A stretch of 64,000 nucleotides of DNA from Escherichia phage AV128. The number at the start of each line of letters is the position of its first letter. Position 1 is the stretch's first letter. The notes under the pieces were generated by a model, which was not told the origin of the DNA, did no database searches, and was given only the letters and a program-made list of their open reading frames with translations. Positions 1 through 57,425 of the stretch are shown here, piece after piece. Made by a program: the position numbers and the translations under genes. The DNA lies in the sequence record OR352958.1. One strand, 5' to 3'.

Positions 1-33
1 TGGGTGCTTTCTTATTAAAATATTGAGGTTAAC

Positions 34-282
34 ATGAATAAAAATGAATCAGTAGCATTCTTGCAATGGCTGGAAGGCGTGGTGGAGTATCGCGCGACAA
101 GCGACCGTTTCATCTTTCAAGGCAAAAGCTTCAAGCGCAAAGGACAAGCCCAGAAAGCAGCGCGTAAGTACTGGAAGGAAGTTTATTCAGAATTTTTCTC
201 TCAAATGGGAATCATCGGTGCAACCGTATCCGGCGACCCTGCGCAGTTGGTATCGATTGATGAATCCAATCGTTACAATTAA
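34..282 (+). CDS. hypothetical early protein (82 aa)
   Basis: ATG at 34 with GAGG upstream; track ORF; no motif recognised. Confidence 0.5.
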   Translation: MNKNESVAFLQWLEGVVEYRATSDRFIFQGKSFKRKGQAQKAARKYWKEVYSEFFSQMGIIGATVSGDPAQLVSIDESNRYN

Positions 283-297
283 TAAACCGATTTGAAT

Positions 298-320
298 GCC
301 GCGCTATGCGGCTTTATTAT
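298..320 (+). terminator. intrinsic terminator
   Basis: GCCGC-loop-GCGGC hairpin followed by TTTATTAT just after stop of 34..282. Confidence 0.45.
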
Positions 321-355
321 AGTTATTGTTAATCACCCTCATGAAAGGTAATGAT

Positions 356-736
356 ATGTCAAATAAGAATGATTCTATTCACAACACATATACTAAAGGC
401 AGCGGAATGGCCTTTGGTGGAAGCATCAAAATTAACGTGCCATCTTGCGATTATGATGGATTGGAAGTCGGCAACCGCGACTTAACATGGGTTTTACGTC
501 GCCAATCCGATTTAGAAGAGAAGCTGGAAAATATTGAGCGTTCTCTTGAAAGTCTTCGCGACCAGCTTTTTGGTTGTCCTGAAGATGAGTCAAAACCTGA
601 ATCACATGCAGCCAATCGCGGTTTGATTGATAATATGCTTGCTATTACCGCTCGATCAATTGGTAAAACTGTGTCCATTGAATCATTGATCAGCCAGATT
701 GCGGATGGCTTTGGTGATGCCCATAAGAGTGAATAG
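356..736 (+). CDS. hypothetical early protein (~126 aa)
   Basis: track ORF 326..736 opens at TTG; in-frame ATG at 356 has AAGG about 7 nt upstream (ATG 341 also possible). Confidence 0.45.
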   Translation: MSNKNDSIHNTYTKGSGMAFGGSIKINVPSCDYDGLEVGNRDLTWVLRRQSDLEEKLENIERSLESLRDQLFGCPEDESKPESHAANRGLIDNMLAITARSIGKTVSIESLISQIADGFGDAHKSE

Positions 737-1384
737 TGGGTGTTGCTGATTTAACCGTGAATCGTGGGTCGCTGTGGCGGCCCTTTCTTTTGCCTGCCGC
801 GCAGGAGTGTACTGCAAATTTACTGTGGGCACAAAATAGTACGGTACTGTCTAGGACTTTTTCTTTGAAAAGTTAGTGGACCAAATGTGTCGTATTTTGA
901 TTAGTGTACTGCAAATTTCATCAAGTACCAAAACGCACCAAAAGACCCATGCCCTAAAAACCACACGAACGCAATAATCAATCGCCGTTACAGTTTCCAG
1001 CGTTACAATTAGAAAGCGAATGATTCGATGCATAATAATATGAAACATAATGATTCGAAAGCGAATGATTGCGTGTAGGATAATATCGGTGGGGATTATT
1101 ATATATGTCGGTAATTTCGCATGCGTACTATTTTCGGGCGAAGGGTCGGCATATTCCTCGTTTTAGTTCGGAACGAAGGGAAAGTTTTGCGCCTTTATAA
1201 AACAACGACTTACGCGACCCGCCTTAACGGTCCGATATAGGTGTCTATATAAAACAAGGACTTGCGCGATGTTCTCCATTTAACGTAATACCTGTTATGC
1301 GAACTAAGGAGCATCTCGAAGAAGATTATGCGACGACGAAGGGAAGGATAAAGGAGTTTTCGCGTAGGAGCGCACCGAGATAGG

Positions 1385-1413
1385 GACGAAGAAAAGCCGC
1401 GACTAAGCGCGGC
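1385..1413 (-). terminator. intrinsic terminator (minus-strand RNA)
   Basis: GCCGCG-loop-CGCGGC hairpin (1396-1413) followed on minus strand by CTTTTCTTCG; 20 nt downstream of stop of 1434..1724. Confidence 0.5.
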
Positions 1414-1433
1414 CTATTAGTAACGGAAGGGTA

Positions 1434-1724
1434 TTATAAGGAGACGATTTTAAAATAAGTCACTTCGCCGCCGAGTTGCGGTACAGCGATATATTCGCCG
1501 CCGATTTCGGTAATCGTATAGACGAAGCCGTTAATCGTTACGCGGCAGGATACGATGTCCTCGTCGCGATACTTGTAAAGGTCGAGGAAGTTGATCGGCT
1601 CATAAATAGACTCGATAGTTGCGTCGACGTTAGAGAGATAAACGCTCTCTAAGGTTTCGCCAAATACGTTAGAGTTTTCGGAAGTCTCGACGCGAGCGGA
1701 ACGGATAGCGGCTAAAGTAATCAT
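1434..1724 (-). CDS. small acidic protein, paralog A (96 aa)
   Basis: ATG with AGGAG upstream; protein shares segments with ORFs 2010..2312 and 2537..2821 (e.g. SVYLSNVDATIES vs EVYAANVDQTIEA). Confidence 0.55.
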   Translation of the reverse strand: MITLAAIRSARVETSENSNVFGETLESVYLSNVDATIESIYEPINFLDLYKYRDEDIVSCRVTINGFVYTITEIGGEYIAVPQLGGEVTYFKIVSL

Positions 1725-1748
1725 AATAATCTCCTAGTTGGTCGGGCG

Positions 1749-1769
1749 GGTAGCGACCTATTCGCTACC
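1749..1769 (-). promoter_or_regulatory. 5-prime leader stem-loop of paralog A transcript
   Basis: GGTAGCG-7nt-CGCTACC inverted repeat between promoter and RBS; same position in paralog C leader carries GTTAACG-7nt-CGTTAAC (compensatory changes). Confidence 0.4.
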
Positions 1770-1791
1770 TCATCCCCTCTCGATATAAAAC

Positions 1792-1820
1792 ATTATAGTC
1801 TTAGTGTACGAAGAAGTAAA
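1792..1820 (-). promoter_or_regulatory. sigma70-like promoter for paralog A
   Basis: on minus strand TTTACT-N17-TATAAT; 19-nt block CTTTACTTCTTCGTACACT conserved upstream of paralog B. Confidence 0.45.
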
Positions 1821-1839
1821 GCACTTTTCGTTATTTTTT

Positions 1840-1992
1840 CTATTTATTTAAAGCGCGTCTCCCAAGTTCGACGACCCAAGCGGCGGCATCTTCCGCCTTA
1901 TTAAATTCGTATAGATGCTTCTTATCTTCGAAGACGTAAAATAAAATACGTCCGAACTTATTAGCCTTCGCGCTTAACTCGATAGTTTTCAT
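1840..1992 (-). CDS. micro-ORF (50 aa), hypothetical
   Basis: ATG at 1992 with AGGAG 5 nt upstream; below the track's 60-aa cutoff; lies between paralog B and the paralog A promoter. Confidence 0.3.
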   Translation of the reverse strand: MKTIELSAKANKFGRILFYVFEDKKHLYEFNKAEDAAAWVVELGRRALNK

Positions 1993-2009
1993 CTTCTACT
2001 CCTTTTTCG

Positions 2010-2312
2010 TTATTTTGCGATAAAATATTTATAAGCCTTATCGCCTTCTACGTCGATATACTCGACGATAATTAACGCTTCGCCGCGCGGCGTAACCGTC
2101 TCGATAAGGGTAACGGCTTCGTCGTCGGTCTTCGCGAAGCGGATGGCACTACGTTCGGCGTACTTAATATCGTCGAAGGAAAGGCCGACGAAAGCGACCG
2201 CGCGGACCTTAATGATGGTGGATTCTAGTTCCGCGTTAACGGCGGCGATAAGAGAACGAACGGTTAAACGGTCTTCGTCGTAAGTAATGATAGAAGAGAT
2301 TAAAGTGGTCAT
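2010..2312 (-). CDS. small acidic protein, paralog B (100 aa)
   Basis: track ORF 2010..2369 trimmed to ATG at 2312, which has GGAG upstream; paralogous to 1434..1724 and 2537..2821. Confidence 0.55.
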   Translation of the reverse strand: MTTLISSIITYDEDRLTVRSLIAAVNAELESTIIKVRAVAFVGLSFDDIKYAERSAIRFAKTDDEAVTLIETVTPRGEALIIVEYIDVEGDKAYKYFIAK

Positions 2313-2368
2313 AATAAAACTCCCGATGCTAGTAGAAGGAAGGGCCATCGCCCGTCTCGATATAAACA

Positions 2369-2396
2369 AGTATACGCGAGTGTACGAAGAAGTAAA
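2369..2396 (-). promoter_or_regulatory. sigma70-like promoter for paralog B
   Basis: on minus strand TTTACT-N16-TATACT with the conserved CTTTACTTCTTCGTACACT block. Confidence 0.4.
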
Positions 2397-2440
2397 GAAA
2401 AAAGATAAAATAATTTATCTCATTTTTATCGAAAAAGTGC

Positions 2441-2468
2441 TTTACTTTTTTCTACACTATATTATAAT
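2441..2468 (+). promoter_or_regulatory. sigma70-like promoter for paralog C
   Basis: TTTACT-N16-TATAAT; divergent from the paralog B promoter. Confidence 0.45.
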
Positions 2469-2492
2469 GTACTCATATCGGGACGGGATGAG

Positions 2493-2513
2493 TTAACGAA
2501 TAGGTCGTTAACG
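2493..2513 (+). promoter_or_regulatory. 5-prime leader stem-loop of paralog C transcript
   Basis: GTTAACG-AATAGGT-CGTTAAC immediately upstream of CAACTAGGAG RBS. Confidence 0.4.
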
Positions 2514-2536
2514 CCTCTCCCAACTAGGAGTTTAAA

Positions 2537-2821
2537 ATGGCTATTCTTAACGTTTCTTCTATTCGTAACGCTATCGTCGAGAACTACGGCGTAAAACAAA
2601 TTTTATCCGAAGTCTACGCCGCGAACGTAGACCAAACTATCGAGGCGGGTGGGGTAACGGTCGCCGAGGCGTTTAAACTTTACGCGGCGTTACCGGAATC
2701 GGACCGCGAAGCCTTCGAAGTAAACGTTAACGGATATTTCTTCGAAGCGGTCGAAATCGGTAATATCTTACTCGTTATGGGCGAAGAAGAATTTGAGACC
2801 TTCTCCCTCGTCGAAGCGTAA
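2537..2821 (+). CDS. small acidic protein, paralog C (94 aa)
   Basis: ATG 2537 with AGGAG; about 18 Asp/Glu vs 4 Lys/Arg; paralog of A and B. Confidence 0.55.
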   Translation: MAILNVSSIRNAIVENYGVKQILSEVYAANVDQTIEAGGVTVAEAFKLYAALPESDREAFEVNVNGYFFEAVEIGNILLVMGEEEFETFSLVEA

Positions 2822-2901
2822 GAGAGGATTTTTAGAGCGTCGTGCGCGGCGCTTTAATAAAATTCTTTCGCGCCTAGCGCCCTAACAAATAGGAGTTTAT
2901 T

Positions 2902-3528
2902 ATGGTTAGCTTAAATCGCTTTTCTACTAGCGGCGACGTTATCGCAACTAAGACCGCCGACCTCGTTGCATTCTATAATGCAAATTCCGGCTCAAAACCG
3001 ATTAAGAAGTTTGCGGACCGCCGGACCGCCGAGACTCGCGTAATCGCGTTAATCGAGTCCTTAAACGCGCTCGATGAGCCGTCCAACGAGTCGCCCATCC
3101 CTGACGCGAAGCCGCGCGAGGAAGTGTCCAGCGATGTAAAAACGCATAAGGCGCGTGCGGTCGTTAAAAAGGCCGAGCCGACCCAGGAAGAACTCGATGC
3201 GATGAGCGATGAAGAGTATGAAGCCTTCGTTAAGAGCGGCTTAAACGATAGTGCAAATTGCGTAGTGCAAAATGGAACTCCTTCCCATCGCCGTTCGAAT
3301 AGCGAAGGTATTGCAAAAAGTTGGGATAACAAGGAAGTGGCGCAAAAGCGTCTCACCCGTAACGGCGTTATTGTCGAGGGTGTAGGAGAGTTCAAATCGG
3401 TCCGCGTAGCGTTTGCTGCGCTGGGCTTACCAGATAGCAAGCACATTCGCTTCCGCATGAAGCTTAAAGAAGCTGGACGCTTGAACTTCGAGTTCGGCAA
3501 CAAGTCCTACACCTTCCAGATCATCTAA
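2902..3528 (+). CDS. hypothetical early protein (208 aa)
   Basis: ATG with AGGAG upstream; contains two in-frame copies of the ATAGTGCAAAT motif (3248-3275). Confidence 0.5.
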   Translation: MVSLNRFSTSGDVIATKTADLVAFYNANSGSKPIKKFADRRTAETRVIALIESLNALDEPSNESPIPDAKPREEVSSDVKTHKARAVVKKAEPTQEELDAMSDEEYEAFVKSGLNDSANCVVQNGTPSHRRSNSEGIAKSWDNKEVAQKRLTRNGVIVEGVGEFKSVRVAFAALGLPDSKHIRFRMKLKEAGRLNFEFGNKSYTFQII

Positions 3529-3534
3529 TCGAAT

Positions 3535-3560
3535 GGCGGCCCTTCGGGGTCGCTTTTCAT
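3535..3560 (+). terminator. intrinsic terminator
   Basis: GGCGGCCC-TTCG-GGGTCGC hairpin then TTTTCAT after stop of 2902..3528. Confidence 0.5.
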
Positions 3561-3578
3561 AGTGCAAATTGGTGGCTT

Positions 3579-3842
3579 ATGAACACGCTTATTCTCATCG
3601 CTACGTTGTCCATCGGAAGTGGTCGCGCCTTATCCCTTTATGACCATAGTGCAAATTGCGCTTACCCAACGCGCGTTGCGGCGATAGTTAATAGTGCAAA
3701 TCGAATGCTATTTGAGACTTGTTGGCGGGTAGATAACGAGAAAGGGCGCATCGTCTTAGGTTATAGTGCAAATCTGCTGGTGGAGTCGTTCGATTGGACG
3801 GCGGAAGGTCGTAAATTGTTACGTAAAGTGACTAAAAGATGA
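3579..3842 (+). CDS. doubtful ORF (87 aa) lying over the motif array
   Basis: ATG with GGTGG upstream, but three motif copies fall in-frame (each read as Ser-Ala-Asn); may be non-coding. Confidence 0.2.
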   Translation: MNTLILIATLSIGSGRALSLYDHSANCAYPTRVAAIVNSANRMLFETCWRVDNEKGRIVLGYSANLLVESFDWTAEGRKLLRKVTKR

Positions 3843-3901
3843 CTTATAATAATACACTTTCTAACGCGTTTATGGTTGTAGCCTTCCCCGTCGTATTACC
3901 G

Positions 3902-3944
3902 ATGGCCCTAGAAGTTGAGAAAATGTGTTCTAGGGCCATTTTAT
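3902..3944 (+). terminator. intrinsic terminator / stem-loop
   Basis: perfect 12-bp inverted repeat ATGGCCCTAGAA...TTCTAGGGCCAT with 14-nt loop followed by TTTAT. Confidence 0.45.
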
Positions 3945-3956
3945 AGTGCAAATTGG

Positions 3957-4445
3957 CTAGTGGCGGGAGAATTGCTCACCCTCTTTGGCTGCCTCTCCAA
4001 AATCCTTGTAGAAATCGTCCATGGAACGGCCCATTTTACTATTGCCATTTTCATCAATCATCGTGATGCCGTAGATGATATTCAGTTCACGGATAGCATT
4101 AAGCTTGGCTGATGCCGCGACTTCTGGATCACGCACAAGCTTCACTAAATTGTGGATGGAACTCTTTACGCTCCACAATTCCTTCAATGGCATCTCTTCC
4201 ATACGCTTTTTGTAGCGCATCTTGTAGTACGGATTGCGCTGCGTGCAGAGGATTCGCTGGCCAGTGTAGTTATCGGTCGCAACCTCCATGCCAAATACTA
4301 GTGCAAAAGCTGCGCGCATGTCATGGCCCTGAATAACAAGGTCAATGAACTCATCGAATAAAGCCTGATTGTGCTCTGCAAATCGCGGGTCTTCAAAGTC
4401 CTCAGGCATCGCTACATAATCTTGACTCATAGTGCAAAATCCCAT
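3957..4445 (-). CDS. hypothetical protein (162 aa)
   Basis: track ORF; both candidate ATGs (4445, 4430) sit inside motif copies and lack a clear RBS. Confidence 0.4.
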   Translation of the reverse strand: MGFCTMSQDYVAMPEDFEDPRFAEHNQALFDEFIDLVIQGHDMRAAFALVFGMEVATDNYTGQRILCTQRNPYYKMRYKKRMEEMPLKELWSVKSSIHNLVKLVRDPEVAASAKLNAIRELNIIYGITMIDENGNSKMGRSMDDFYKDFGEAAKEGEQFSRH

Positions 4446-4656
4446 AGTGCAAATTAATAGTGTGAATTATACAATGATTGAACATTATATTCAAGTGCAG
4501 ATTGATGTTCAAATTGGCTGTAAACGTACACAAACCATAGTGCTGAATGAATATCGGACCGTGGTGCGTGGTGTACTGTTTGATACGTATAAAAGAAATC
4601 CATCCCTTTCGCCGCTTGTTATGCAAATCAATGACTTAGCCGCTGCTGGATGGTTG

Positions 4657-4945
4657 AAGCGTATCATGAAGTATCATCCGTATTGCCGCAAGTCTTTGTT
4701 TTTACTTATATCTTACGGATGATACGTATAAATATAAGTTTAGTATAAGTATGAGGATGTAGAAAAAAATTAATTTAAATTAATTCAAAATGGAGTTAAT
4801 TGTTTTTTTTCAAAGTTGTATAAAGTATAGCGGCGACGCGTATCATCCGTATCATCCGTAAGATGTACCACTGAACCCAGTCGCGGCGCACCATAGAAGT
4901 GTGTGGAGTGAACTACGGATAGGTCCAAATCTTACGTCATTATAC
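4657..4945. repeat. iteron/AT-rich palindromic element, copy A
   Basis: tandem 9-bp units GTATCATCC in direct and inverted orientation around an AT-rich core; 46-bp block nearly identical to 57322-57367. Confidence 0.6.
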
Positions 4946-4999
4946 GCTTAAATTCTATGCGTAAGGTTAGCCAGCTAACTATATCTCCTTTTTAATTTC

Positions 5000-5225
5000 A
5001 AGCGGCAATCCCATAGACGGCGCAGCCTACAGGCCCACACACCACGGTACACGCTCCAATTCCTAGTGATTCCCTCTACAATCCCACAGCACCACAGTAC
5101 AATATTCTTCCAAATACGCACACATATTCAAGACACACAAATCACGTCACAATCCTCGTTTCACACCATCCTCTAATAGATTTACACAAATCAATCGCTT
5201 TATCCGATAATAAAGCCTCACAAAC
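5000..5225 (+). other. CA-rich, G-poor strand-asymmetric tract
   Basis: runs such as cccacacaccac, acacatattcaagacacacaaatcac; dense ACA triplets; no ORF. Confidence 0.5.
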
Positions 5226-5230
5226 AACAG

Positions 5231-5256
5231 GCAAACAAAAAGGGCCAATCGGCCCT
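5231..5256 (-). terminator. intrinsic terminator ending the minus-strand early/middle operon
   Basis: AGGGCC-GATT-GGCCCT hairpin followed on minus strand by TTTTTGTTTG, just past stop of 5274..5726. Confidence 0.55.
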
Positions 5257-5273
5257 CTTAACATTAGTCAAAA

Positions 5274-5726
5274 TTAAAATATAAAATTCTTCACTCCTAG
5301 CCTTTTAAATTCTTTCCTTAACATTATATTAAACTTCTTCAATTTAGTTTTATTCATCCTTAGCGGATTGTAGGTGAACACCTTTTCTATTACTTCCTCG
5401 CTCATTTTTGAGCGCATATTAGTTGCGTAATAGTTCTTGAACGTATAAATAAGGTAATTTGCTTCAAGCTTAAGTTCAATTACTTCCTCCGATTCATCAA
5501 GCTCAAGCAATCCTCTTTGCGTAAGAATATCTCTTAATATATCCTGACATTTCTTGCAATCACCTTTGCCTAAAAGCGAGTCGATATAATCGCCGCTGAC
5601 GCGCTCATCACCGAAATATGTTGCGCGACCGCAAAGGCTTTGCACTTCTCCTTCGTCAAAGTAATGCGCACGATGGCCCCACTTCGGTATGGCCCAACCA
5701 GCGGCGATAAGCCGTTTGCCCATCAC
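5274..5726 (-). CDS. hypothetical early/middle protein (150 aa)
   Basis: track ORF, last gene of minus-strand operon. Confidence 0.5.
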   Translation of the reverse strand: MMGKRLIAAGWAIPKWGHRAHYFDEGEVQSLCGRATYFGDERVSGDYIDSLLGKGDCKKCQDILRDILTQRGLLELDESEEVIELKLEANYLIYTFKNYYATNMRSKMSEEVIEKVFTYNPLRMNKTKLKKFNIMLRKEFKRLGVKNFIF

Positions 5727-6148
5727 CCCTCCTTAACGACCCGATAAGCAATAATGTCACTGCCTTTGAGTGCTCCTATATGACCCCAGTGAAGATGGTC
5801 AGAAAGTCTCGACAGTACTTTATCACCTCCATTGCGCAGCTTGTATTCAACAATCTCGCCAGGCACCGGATTCTTTCCACCAAGCCACACGGTCCACGCA
5901 CCATCCTTCGGCGCACTTTCCTCTTCGATTCGCGTGGCAACAACGTCGTGCAACTGCTTAACGAGCGCCGACGCATCACGGACCTGTGAGCGTAATGCAA
6001 CCAACTCGCGTTGCGCTTCACTGTATTTCGCTTCCAGCGCGGCGTAGTCCTCATATGCAACAAAACGTCCTTTGTGACTTTCTGGAACAGGAGTGATGTC
6101 GAAATCTTCTGTCGCCACATCGTATGTCAGGTCGTAACGTTGTACCAT
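5723..6148 (-). CDS. hypothetical protein (141 aa)
   Basis: track ORF, start/stop overlap with neighbours. Confidence 0.5.
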   Translation of the reverse strand: MVQRYDLTYDVATEDFDITPVPESHKGRFVAYEDYAALEAKYSEAQRELVALRSQVRDASALVKQLHDVVATRIEEESAPKDGAWTVWLGGKNPVPGEIVEYKLRNGGDKVLSRLSDHLHWGHIGALKGSDIIAYRVVKEG

Positions 6149-17681: not shown

Positions 17682-17719
17682 ATCAGAAAATATTTCCGCA
17701 CTAACAAAGGTCGCCTGAA

Positions 17720-57033: not shown

Positions 57034-57143
57034 CCACCCTCAAATAAGTATTGTGTATTATATCTAATGAAAAAAACTTAGGCAAACAATAATTATGGTT
57101 TGAATATGTATAACAACCGATATAGCCGCGCCTTAATTAGTGT

Positions 57144-57425
57144 GATACGGATGATACGGATAAAATGAGGCGTATTTTTATCCGTATCGGTGTATAAGCC
57201 GCGCTATCACTGGTGTGCTACGGATGATACGGATGATACGGATACTTTTCATATATAAGAGTTTATAAAAAAAATAAAATTAAATTAGATATATAATTTT
57301 AAATTAATTTATTTGAATTCCTATAAAGTATCGCGGCAACGCGTATCATCCGTATCATCCGTAAGATTCTTTTGAAAACAACTACTTACTTGATACGGAT
57401 GATACGTCATTATACGCGTAAAACC
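57144..57425. repeat. iteron/AT-rich palindromic element, copy B
   Basis: GATACGGAT units at 57144-57162, 57218-57245, 57392-57406 and rc GTATCATCC at 57343-57365 around an AT-rich core; homologous to 4657-4945. Confidence 0.6.

Follow-up and report, generated by a model that had tools for sequence, protein, structure and literature searches.

A one-directional array of an 11-bp motif around the small terminase gene in the terminal repeat of Escherichia phage AV128

A stretch of 64,000 nucleotides of Escherichia phage AV128 (sequence record OR352958.1; hereafter the window) contains a dense array of a short motif, whose 9-mer core TAGTGCAAA occurs ten times on the plus strand and nowhere else in the window. 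The array is centred on terS, the gene of the small terminase, and lies inside the long direct terminal repeat of the phage. It is more likely a packaging-related protein-binding signal than a set of promoters, because co-oriented repeats surround terS near a physical end of the genome. The explanation that we favour, tentatively and with rather less than even confidence, is that the copies are binding sites of a phage protein, most likely TerS itself, which would mark the end of the genome for packaging and at the same time make terS expression self-limiting.

The 9-mer TAGTGCAAA tops the over-representation ranking of 9- to 12-mers in the whole window, with starts at 3249, 3263, 3560, 3647, 3692, 3764, 3944, 4299, 4430 and 4445. 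The 11-mer ATAGTGCAAAT has seven exact copies (3248, 3559, 3646, 3691, 3763, 3943 and 4444), again on the plus strand only, compared with a chance expectation of 0.03 copies from dinucleotide-preserving shuffles. The pattern TAGTGC[AG][AG]A has a single match outside the array in the 64 kb, on the minus strand at 17703, and in the complete genome of phage Bas99 it has 10 co-oriented copies in the array region and 1 elsewhere. The dense array described in the initial annotation is real by these counts, and its motif is not spread at similar density along a complete genome. The pattern search with 2 mismatches that had been proposed as a check of enrichment gives no excess, with 25 matches in the window compared with 27 expected by chance, which indicates that the signal is carried by near-exact copies only. 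The family consensus is (A/G/C)TAGTGC(A/G)(A/G)A(T/A). Spacing between copies is irregular (13–486 bp), and the 1.3 kb of the array reach from about 110 bp upstream of the terS start to about 700 bp beyond its stop. The copies listed in the initial annotation were essentially right, but the list missed the copy at 4298 (CTAGTGCAAAA) and the variants at 4457 (ATAGTGTGAAT) and 4492 (CAAGTGCAGAT). The members of the array, with two related sequences outside it, are the following (ORF, open reading frame; aa, amino acids).

3248 to 3258, plus strand: motif copy ATAGTGCAAAT, exact match, within a 208-aa ORF and read D-S-A-N.
3262 to 3272, plus strand: motif copy GTAGTGCAAAA, within the 208-aa ORF in the other reading frame (V-V-Q-N).
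3559 to 3569, plus strand: motif copy directly after the hairpin 3531–3558 and 9 nt before the ATG (3579) of an 87-aa gene.
3646 to 3656, plus strand: motif copy within the 87-aa gene (H-S-A-N), its position kept in the relative L012.
3691 to 3701, plus strand: motif copy within the 87-aa gene (N-S-A-N), an 11/11 match in L012.
3763 to 3773, plus strand: motif copy within the 87-aa gene, with a Chi octamer (3776–3783) 2 nt further on.
3943 to 3953, plus strand: motif copy between the hairpin 3901–3940 and the terS stop codon, with no plus-strand gene after it.
4298 to 4308, plus strand: motif copy CTAGTGCAAAA within terS, on its antisense strand; copy and flanks kept in L012.
4429 to 4439, plus strand: motif copy ATAGTGCAAAA, with CAT at 4428–4430, the minus-strand terS start codon, preceding it; the same arrangement in L012.
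4444 to 4454, plus strand: motif copy in the terS 5' leader, exact match.
4457 to 4467, plus strand: variant copy ATAGTGTGAAT, overlapping by 2 nt the minus-strand -10 element TATAAT (4471 to 4466) of a sigma-70-like terS promoter.
4492 to 4502 and 4537 to 4548, plus strand: degenerate copies CAAGTGCAGAT and ATAGTGCTGAAT, weak family members that vary among Wifcevirus genomes.
809 to 819 and 906 to 916, plus strand: two copies of GTACTGCAAAT, of uncertain family membership.

Copy 3763 has an A-to-G change at 3770 in the Bas99/WFC/UViG subgroup. Two copies had been described as following intrinsic terminators and preceding start codons. Both hairpins fold well (3531–3558 at -18 kcal/mol and 3901–3940 at -20.9 kcal/mol), but a start codon comes next at copy 3559 alone; what comes after copy 3943 is the terS stop codon, on the opposite strand, and not a plus-strand gene. 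An Rfam scan of window positions 1–6000 at E ≤ 1 gave no relevant match, with two chance-level matches only, and DnaA boxes, IHF, Fis and sigma-54 sites and T7/SP6-type promoters were rejected by eye, as the invariant core TAGTGC misses their critical positions.

The source DNA belongs to Wifcevirus, E. coli myoviruses of about 68 kb, and is 97% identical to RCIP0363, kaset, Mansfield and WFH at 2400–5000. PhageTerm predicts a direct terminal repeat of 3,673 bp for Mansfield, and the repeats of WFC and WFH measure about 3.7 kb (Korf et al., PMC6563267). By sequence matching, window position 941 corresponds to the inner boundary of the Mansfield repeat and to the end of the WFH record, and 4791 to the starts of the Mansfield and WFC records; the repeat is therefore placed at 941–4791 in the window. 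It is 3.85 kb long, and the array lies within it, 254–1543 bp from the right genome end. The features that frame the array are as follows.

941 to 4791: direct terminal repeat, both boundaries being physical genome ends, placed by sequence matching to Mansfield, WFH and WFC.
3957 to 4430, minus strand: small terminase gene terS (157 aa; phmmer E = 9e-33 to PDB 7UXE).
4466 to 4512, minus strand: sigma-70-like promoters ahead of terS, two in number (TTGAAC-17-TATAAT and TTGAAT-17-TATAAT), from a consensus scan only; the relatives have a comparable one.
4784 to 4801: TTCAAAAT/GGAGTTAATT, spanning the right genome end 4791/4792 (slash), identical in L012.

PDB 7UXE is the small terminase of Pseudomonas phage E217, and the Mansfield annotation likewise names a terminase small subunit. 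Variable sites in terS fall 4/1/45 at codon positions 1/2/3 among eight Wifcevirus genomes, the set used for all such counts below. The large terminase gene is distant from terS, at the start of the Bas99 record, and a similarly wide separation, of about 58 kb, is known from E217 (PMC9611059). The 18-mer at 4784–4801 is probably the terminase cut site, because it is identical in L012 despite a surrounding DNA identity of about 70%. The sequences related to the motif that had been noted near 807 and 905 are present, as GTACTGCAAAT at 809 and 906. Located 24 bp to the outside of the left repeat boundary, the copy at 906 occurs in all Wifcevirus genomes, and the copy at 809 is missing in Bas99 and WFC; L012 has a degenerate form of the sequence, and L013 lacks it.

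The conservation of the array extends beyond the genus, and the more distant relatives provide the stronger evidence for it. Within it, the eight Wifcevirus genomes keep 8–10 copies, and variable columns amount to 3.6% in the motif compared with 10.7% elsewhere (Fisher p = 0.014, with a patch in ECML-117, described below, set aside). The relatives L012 to L015 were obtained from public read assemblies by a TerS protein search and comprise the contigs that could be fetched. Their TerS proteins are 70% (L012), 53% (L014), 50% (L013) and 45% (L015) identical to that of the window, with DNA identities of about 70% or less, and each carries 6–11 co-oriented motif copies, compared with a shuffle maximum of 3–5, in arrays that reach from just upstream of terS to 450–900 bp beyond its stop. 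Between the window and L012 the copies 3559, 3646, 3691 and 4298 and the triple 4429/4444/4457 are conserved in position. In L015, the most distant lineage, the consensus has drifted to (A/G)TAGTGCGGAT, which points to a co-evolving phage partner and not to a fixed host factor. Copy 3691 encodes an invariant N-S-A in the 87-aa protein, for which four lineages use the identical codons AAT-AGT-GCA, while L015 keeps the amino acids with the codons AAT-AGC-GCC and has no motif there. As far as such comparisons of sequences can tell, selection acts on the DNA word itself, beyond the encoded peptide.

Two of the copies appear to be gains. In ECML-117 (L008) a patch of about 30 bp at 3241–3280, of unchanged length and with identical flanks, differs by 17 substitutions that remove exactly copies 3248 and 3262 and change 11 residues of the 208-aa protein (DSANCVVQNGT to DAPVGADKIAS). 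Because the more distant L012 resembles ECML-117 at this place, with both copies absent, we take these copies to be derived, gained in most Wifceviruses inside a coding linker.

Phages MyoSmar (Myosmarvirus), Pa193 (Pbunavirus), BcepF1 and Gekk3-15 have TerS homologues but no array above shuffles; the last three share a layout of primase, gap and terS. MyoSmar (L005) has three co-oriented copies of AAAAAAATAAGCATGCTTTGTA, a 22-bp triple repeat unrelated in sequence to the Wifcevirus motif, at 5509–5639, just downstream of terS and inside the predicted terminal repeat. A scan of IMG/VR for motif pairs returned about 120 matches, the number expected by chance, with a dispersed array in Wifcevirus contigs only; the remaining matches are short-period tandem repeats. 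A literature search with the motif string found unrelated primers only and, within the library searched, no mention in a phage context, and the Wifcevirus literature consulted describes no such element.

A common codon phase of the copies, to which the initial annotation had drawn attention, is present in part. Nine of 12 copies start at positions congruent to 1 mod 3 (3262, 3559, 3646, 3691, 3763, 3943, 4429, 4444 and 4537), whereas 3248, 4298 and 4457 start at 2 mod 3, and the claim that all copies within ORFs read AGT-GCA-AAT fails at copy 3262, which reads GTA-GTG-CAA. The three copies inside the 87-aa gene do share one frame. Since one frame of the motif contains TAG, just two frames are possible within plus-strand ORFs. 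The phase pattern is not conserved, because a 1-nt deletion between copies 4429 and 4444 in 5 of the 8 Wifcevirus genomes shifts their relative phase. Codon phase is, judging from these alignments, mostly a by-product of stop-codon avoidance, with chance contributing the rest.

The array is physically joined to the predicted terS promoter. In the window, L012, L013 and L014 the -10 element TATAAT of terS runs into a motif copy, the last two bases of the hexamer being the first two of the motif, and the junction reads TATA[AT-YNRCACTAT] in the terS sense. Beyond the junction, the window and L012 have a further two copies in tandem, and the terS ATG falls within the last one. A protein bound at 4429–4467 would cover the transcription start and the leader of terS.

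These results lead us to propose the following scenario. TerS, as a ring of helix-turn-helix domains, would load onto the one-directional array and in doing so label the section of the terminal repeat nearest terS as viral DNA. Loaded TerS could then position or time the terminase cut at TTCAAAAT/GGAG (4791/4792), 250–350 bp beyond the densest copies, and occupancy of the three tandem copies on the -10/start region and the leader of terS would hold TerS low, as packaging needs. The binding of a protein, its identity as TerS and a role at the initiation or termination of packaging, or possibly in regulation alone, are what we infer here. TerS would be the most economical candidate because terS is central in every lineage, the conserved cut site adjoins the array and the motif drifts in the most divergent lineage. 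In both pac and cos phages, too, the TerS recognition site lies in or beside terS. Like a cosB- or pac-type site, the array stands in and next to terS (also in L012–L015) and at a unique location in the genome; its distance from the mapped end, at least 335 bp for the strong copies, is short, yet the copies are farther away and more extended than characterised sites.

The TerS protein offers a further hint. An AlphaFold model (mean predicted local distance difference test score, pLDDT, of 73) places helices at residues 22–33, 38–46 and 56–65. R65, with which the predicted third helix ends, does not vary among the motif-bearing lineages and is Ser in the motif-less Pbunavirus and MyoSmar, and R59 is replaced by Tyr only in the lineage with the drifted motif. 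This co-variation with the motif is suggestive of TerS as the binding partner. A self-limitation of TerS would also make sense in view of the observation, cited in a review, that excess TerS lowers the yield of E217 (PMC9611059).

Several observations weigh against TerS as the reader of the motif. The residue co-variation rests on very few lineages, and the homologous TerS of E217 showed no appreciable DNA binding in vitro (PMC9611059). At 1.3 kb the array greatly exceeds every characterised cosB or pac site in size and is much less compact, with the nearest strong copies about 335 bp from the cut, and a different repeat family, GATACGGAT, flanks the cut site more closely. MyoSmar, in which terS lies about 0.4 kb inside the predicted boundary of the terminal repeat, has no array, and Pbunavirus, BcepF1 and Gekk3-15 lack it as well, which means that the array is not required for this style of packaging as such.

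Characterised packaging signals provide partial parallels. In the cosB site of lambda (R1–R3, gpNu1), as here, short asymmetric repeats that are unique in the genome lie between the cut (cosN) and the small-terminase gene. The cosB site consists of three such sites within about 150 bp, in mixed orientation, together with an IHF site, whereas the present array has 10–12 co-oriented copies over 1.3 kb, through and beyond terS, in a genome with a 3.85-kb terminal repeat and not cohesive ends. The pacL–pacR boxes of SPP1 and SF6 and the pac hexamers of P1 are likewise sets of several short repeats in or beside terS, recognised by ring-shaped TerS, and the SPP1 pac site also overlaps the promoters of the terminase operon. 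These sites stand on both sides of the cut, within at most 200 bp, in phages with headful packaging; the copies described here are one-sided and much more spread, and the ends are fixed. The SRL and SRR elements of T7 are reportedly short direct-repeat arrays beside the terminal repetition, linked to concatemer processing. They resemble the present array in being short repeats of one orientation that border a direct terminal repeat, in a fixed-end phage, but their 7-bp units are tightly packed on both outer flanks of a 160-bp repeat, whereas here 11-bp units lie inside a 3.85-kb repeat, near one boundary only and interleaved with genes.

The copies could instead be sites of another phage DNA-binding protein, such as a regulator of the early-to-late switch or a silencer of terminal-repeat genes. 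By coating this stretch of the repeat, it would switch off or adjust the expression of terS and of the convergent early genes. DNA-level selection and drift between lineages fit this equally well, a copy overlaps the terS -10 element in four lineages, and most genes of this phage encode unannotated small proteins. Regulators, however, usually use dyad or paired sites at promoters, and here ten co-oriented single copies extend across coding DNA. In addition, three strong early promoters at 1792–2468 carry no motif copy, and scans of the neighbouring genes against Pfam and PHROGs revealed no DNA-binding candidate, so that we consider such a regulator unlikely.

A different possibility, and an improbable one in our judgement, is that the copies form a polar signal that is read from the DNA end by a translocating enzyme, either as a roadblock or recombination hotspot acting together with Chi, against or with RecBCD that enters at the terS-proximal end, or as a brake for the packaging motor before the terminal cut. 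Strict co-orientation, irregular spacing and redundancy are the signature of Chi- or KOPS-type signals, and in relatives this region has clusters of Chi octamers (GCTGGTGG), all on the strand that carries the motif. L014 has 5 of them in 1.96 kb (411–1836), L013 has 7 (323–1824 and 4348), L015 has 2 (792 and 1272), MyoSmar has 4 (5653–5993) and the window has 1 (3776–3783), compared with an expectation of 0.03–0.1 per strand, and all are oriented for RecBCD entry at the terS-proximal genome end (4791). The window also contains a near-Chi sequence, GCTAGTGG, after copy 3943. Terminal clustering of Chi is known from the lambdoid phage LLS and from P1 (PMC12315714), whose one-directional octamers near a genome end or terminal repeat recall the array; we know of no earlier description of it for this phage group. 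The motif, however, is unlike any known Chi, sharing only region and strand with 5'-GCTGGTGG-3', and no enzyme is known to read it, including the RecBCD of E. coli; known Chi clusters, for their part, are not tied to terS or its promoter. L012 has a full array and no Chi, and Chi lies within 15 nt of the motif inconsistently (3/5, 4/4 and 0/2), for which reason a pairing of Chi with the motif, not upheld across lineages, was rejected. The fusion of copies to the terS promoter and start codon would also be left unexplained.

With a similarly low probability, the array could be a new polar end signal that has no described counterpart. In one version it would be a multi-copy word for the packaging motor, the counterpart of Chi for the terminase, that announces the end of the repeat and triggers the fixed cut. 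In the other it would be a landing pad for TerS, which, made at once from an inward-facing promoter near the end, would coat the first-injected DNA and block RecBCD, and TerS together with Chi would steer the end into recombination with the other copy of the repeat.

Slightly less probable still is that the copies are iterons of a replication origin within the terminal repeat, to which the phage primase-helicase or a different initiator would bind. Iterons are typically direct repeats in one orientation, there is an AT-rich stretch at 4730–4815, and in MyoSmar, BcepF1 and Gekk3-15 the conserved neighbours on the upstream side of the terS region are primase genes. The spacing of 13–486 bp across 1.3 kb of mostly coding DNA is irregular, which speaks against this, and some 270 bp or more separate the densest copies from the AT-rich stretch, whose core is at least 190 bp from the array as a whole. 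The GATACGGAT 9-mers are immediate neighbours of AT-rich cores at two genomic locations and match an origin more closely.

Among the promoter elements, operator array and recognition sites that the initial annotation had offered as options, a protein-recognition array is the one we favour, and the promoter reading is weak. It would take the copies as phage-specific promoters, with a -10-like ATAGT and a start region used by host RNA polymerase together with a phage factor. The best point in its favour is copy 3559, which stands between a terminator and the ribosome-binding site of the 87-aa gene in four lineages, the layout of terminator, motif, ribosome-binding site and ATG being kept in L012, L013 and L014; the intergenic space there is just 50 bp, so it may also simply be the cheapest spot for a site. 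A precedent exists in the Pbunavirus 14-1, a distant relative with a class of non-sigma-70 promoters that have a short CTGGG core near the transcription start (PMC10914365). That core is, as here, a short conserved element that may need a phage factor, but it belongs to promoters at mapped transcription starts, whereas the motif described here does not extend beyond a 1.3-kb stretch and in most cases has no gene downstream. The first T of TATAGT is present in 2 of 10 copies (4 have C), nothing upstream of the motif is conserved, neither a -35 element nor a TG, and a scan for sigma-70 promoters called none of the copies. The motif thus has neither the -10 first T with a -35 or extended -10 element that defines sigma-70 promoters nor, being absent elsewhere in the genome, the distribution of phage-specific single-element promoters of the T4-late or 14-1 CTGGG kind. 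The orientation remains the same although the gene strand switches at 3842/3957; copies 3943, 4298, 4429, 4444 and 4457 stand antisense to features of the minus strand, and a further five are inside plus-strand ORFs. One or two copies at most have a co-oriented downstream gene and at least six have none, the group at 4429–4457 facing a non-coding leader in which the candidate ORF after 4444/4457 has no coding signature. An exact identity over 11 nt would be unusual for promoters of host polymerase, as would a promoter class restricted to one 1.3-kb stretch of a 68-kb genome. With no -35 element, a rare first T and no co-oriented gene downstream of most copies, we regard promoters as the least probable of the explanations considered, and very unlikely.

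The genes and repeats around the array were characterised as well. The two plus-strand ORFs are real genes by their variable sites at codon positions 1/2/3, which number 7/11/44 in the 208-aa ORF and 3/3/19 in the 87-aa ORF. Homologues of the 87-aa protein are 35–57% identical and share invariant Cys and Trp residues and a signal-peptide-like N-terminus. For the 208-aa protein nearly all matches in a homologue search were near-identical sequences, and phmmer against the PDB gave noise only (NusA at E = 0.2); ten neighbouring ORFs compared with Pfam and PHROGs matched no informative family. The ORFs 4474–4722 (plus strand) and 4509–4667 (minus strand, an annotated gene in Mansfield and Bas99) have no third-position bias (10/15/6 and 10/7/5, respectively) and are not conserved in L012, which has a 32-bp deletion there. 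On these grounds 4431–4791 is probably a non-coding leader.

The 9-mer GATACGGAT/ATCCGTATC occurs in both orientations, often in tandem, and flanks AT-rich cores at 4671–4865 and 57143–57410. The core of the first element holds the right genome end (4791). The second, a paralogue of about 170 bp, is situated between genes, upstream of that for the head protease, and lacks the cut-site 18-mer. The two share a near-identical 45-nt block, TATAAAGTAT(A/C)GCGGC(G/A)ACGCGTATCATCCGTATCATCCGTAAGAT, and in L013 and L014, too, the AT-rich stretch has TACGGAT repeats ahead of it. This element looks like an origin or a late regulatory region.

At the other boundary of the repeat, 826–1000 contains non-coding blocks, outside and across position 941, that are conserved in L012: AAATAGTACGGTACTGTC.AGG.CTTTTTCTTTGAAA; AAGTACCAAAACGC..CAAAAGACCCATG, which spans the left genome end; and AAAAACCACAC.AACGCAATAATCAATCGCCGTTACAGTTT. 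The sequence AGTACCAAAA is kept in L013 too. Tandem 34-nt units with GAAAGCGAATGATT(C)G, each with a weak promoter-like match, follow at 1008–1086, 70–145 bp inside the left repeat end, and constitute a separate repeat family near this boundary; L015 has five copies of GAATCATT at a comparable place (3398–3590). Further inside, the three strong sigma-70-like early promoters are found at 1790–1828 (minus strand), 2360–2397 (minus strand) and 2433–2472 (plus strand), with the form TTTACT-16/17-TATAAT or TATACT and a conserved 19–27 nt around the -35 element and spacer. The leader of two divergent early genes is duplicated in a 65-nt inverted repeat, whose arms (1722–1786 and 2475–2539) are 78% complementary.

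We know of no account of how myoviruses with long terminal repeats recognise their own DNA and make fixed ends, nor of a DNA target for the small terminase of Pbunavirus, the related group used in phage therapy, although the structure of that protein has been solved. The conserved 11-bp word around orthologous terS genes is a concrete and easily synthesised candidate for such a target. If TerS does bind it, the array would define the packaging specificity of Wifcevirus-like phages, would allow the design of packageable vectors and would be a TerS site with a second function as autoregulatory operator; should the motif be bound by a different protein, it would still mark an unrecognised control element of the terminal repeat. 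Taken together, the array is best regarded as a candidate terminase or DNA-end recognition array, with a smaller chance that it is something without precedent.

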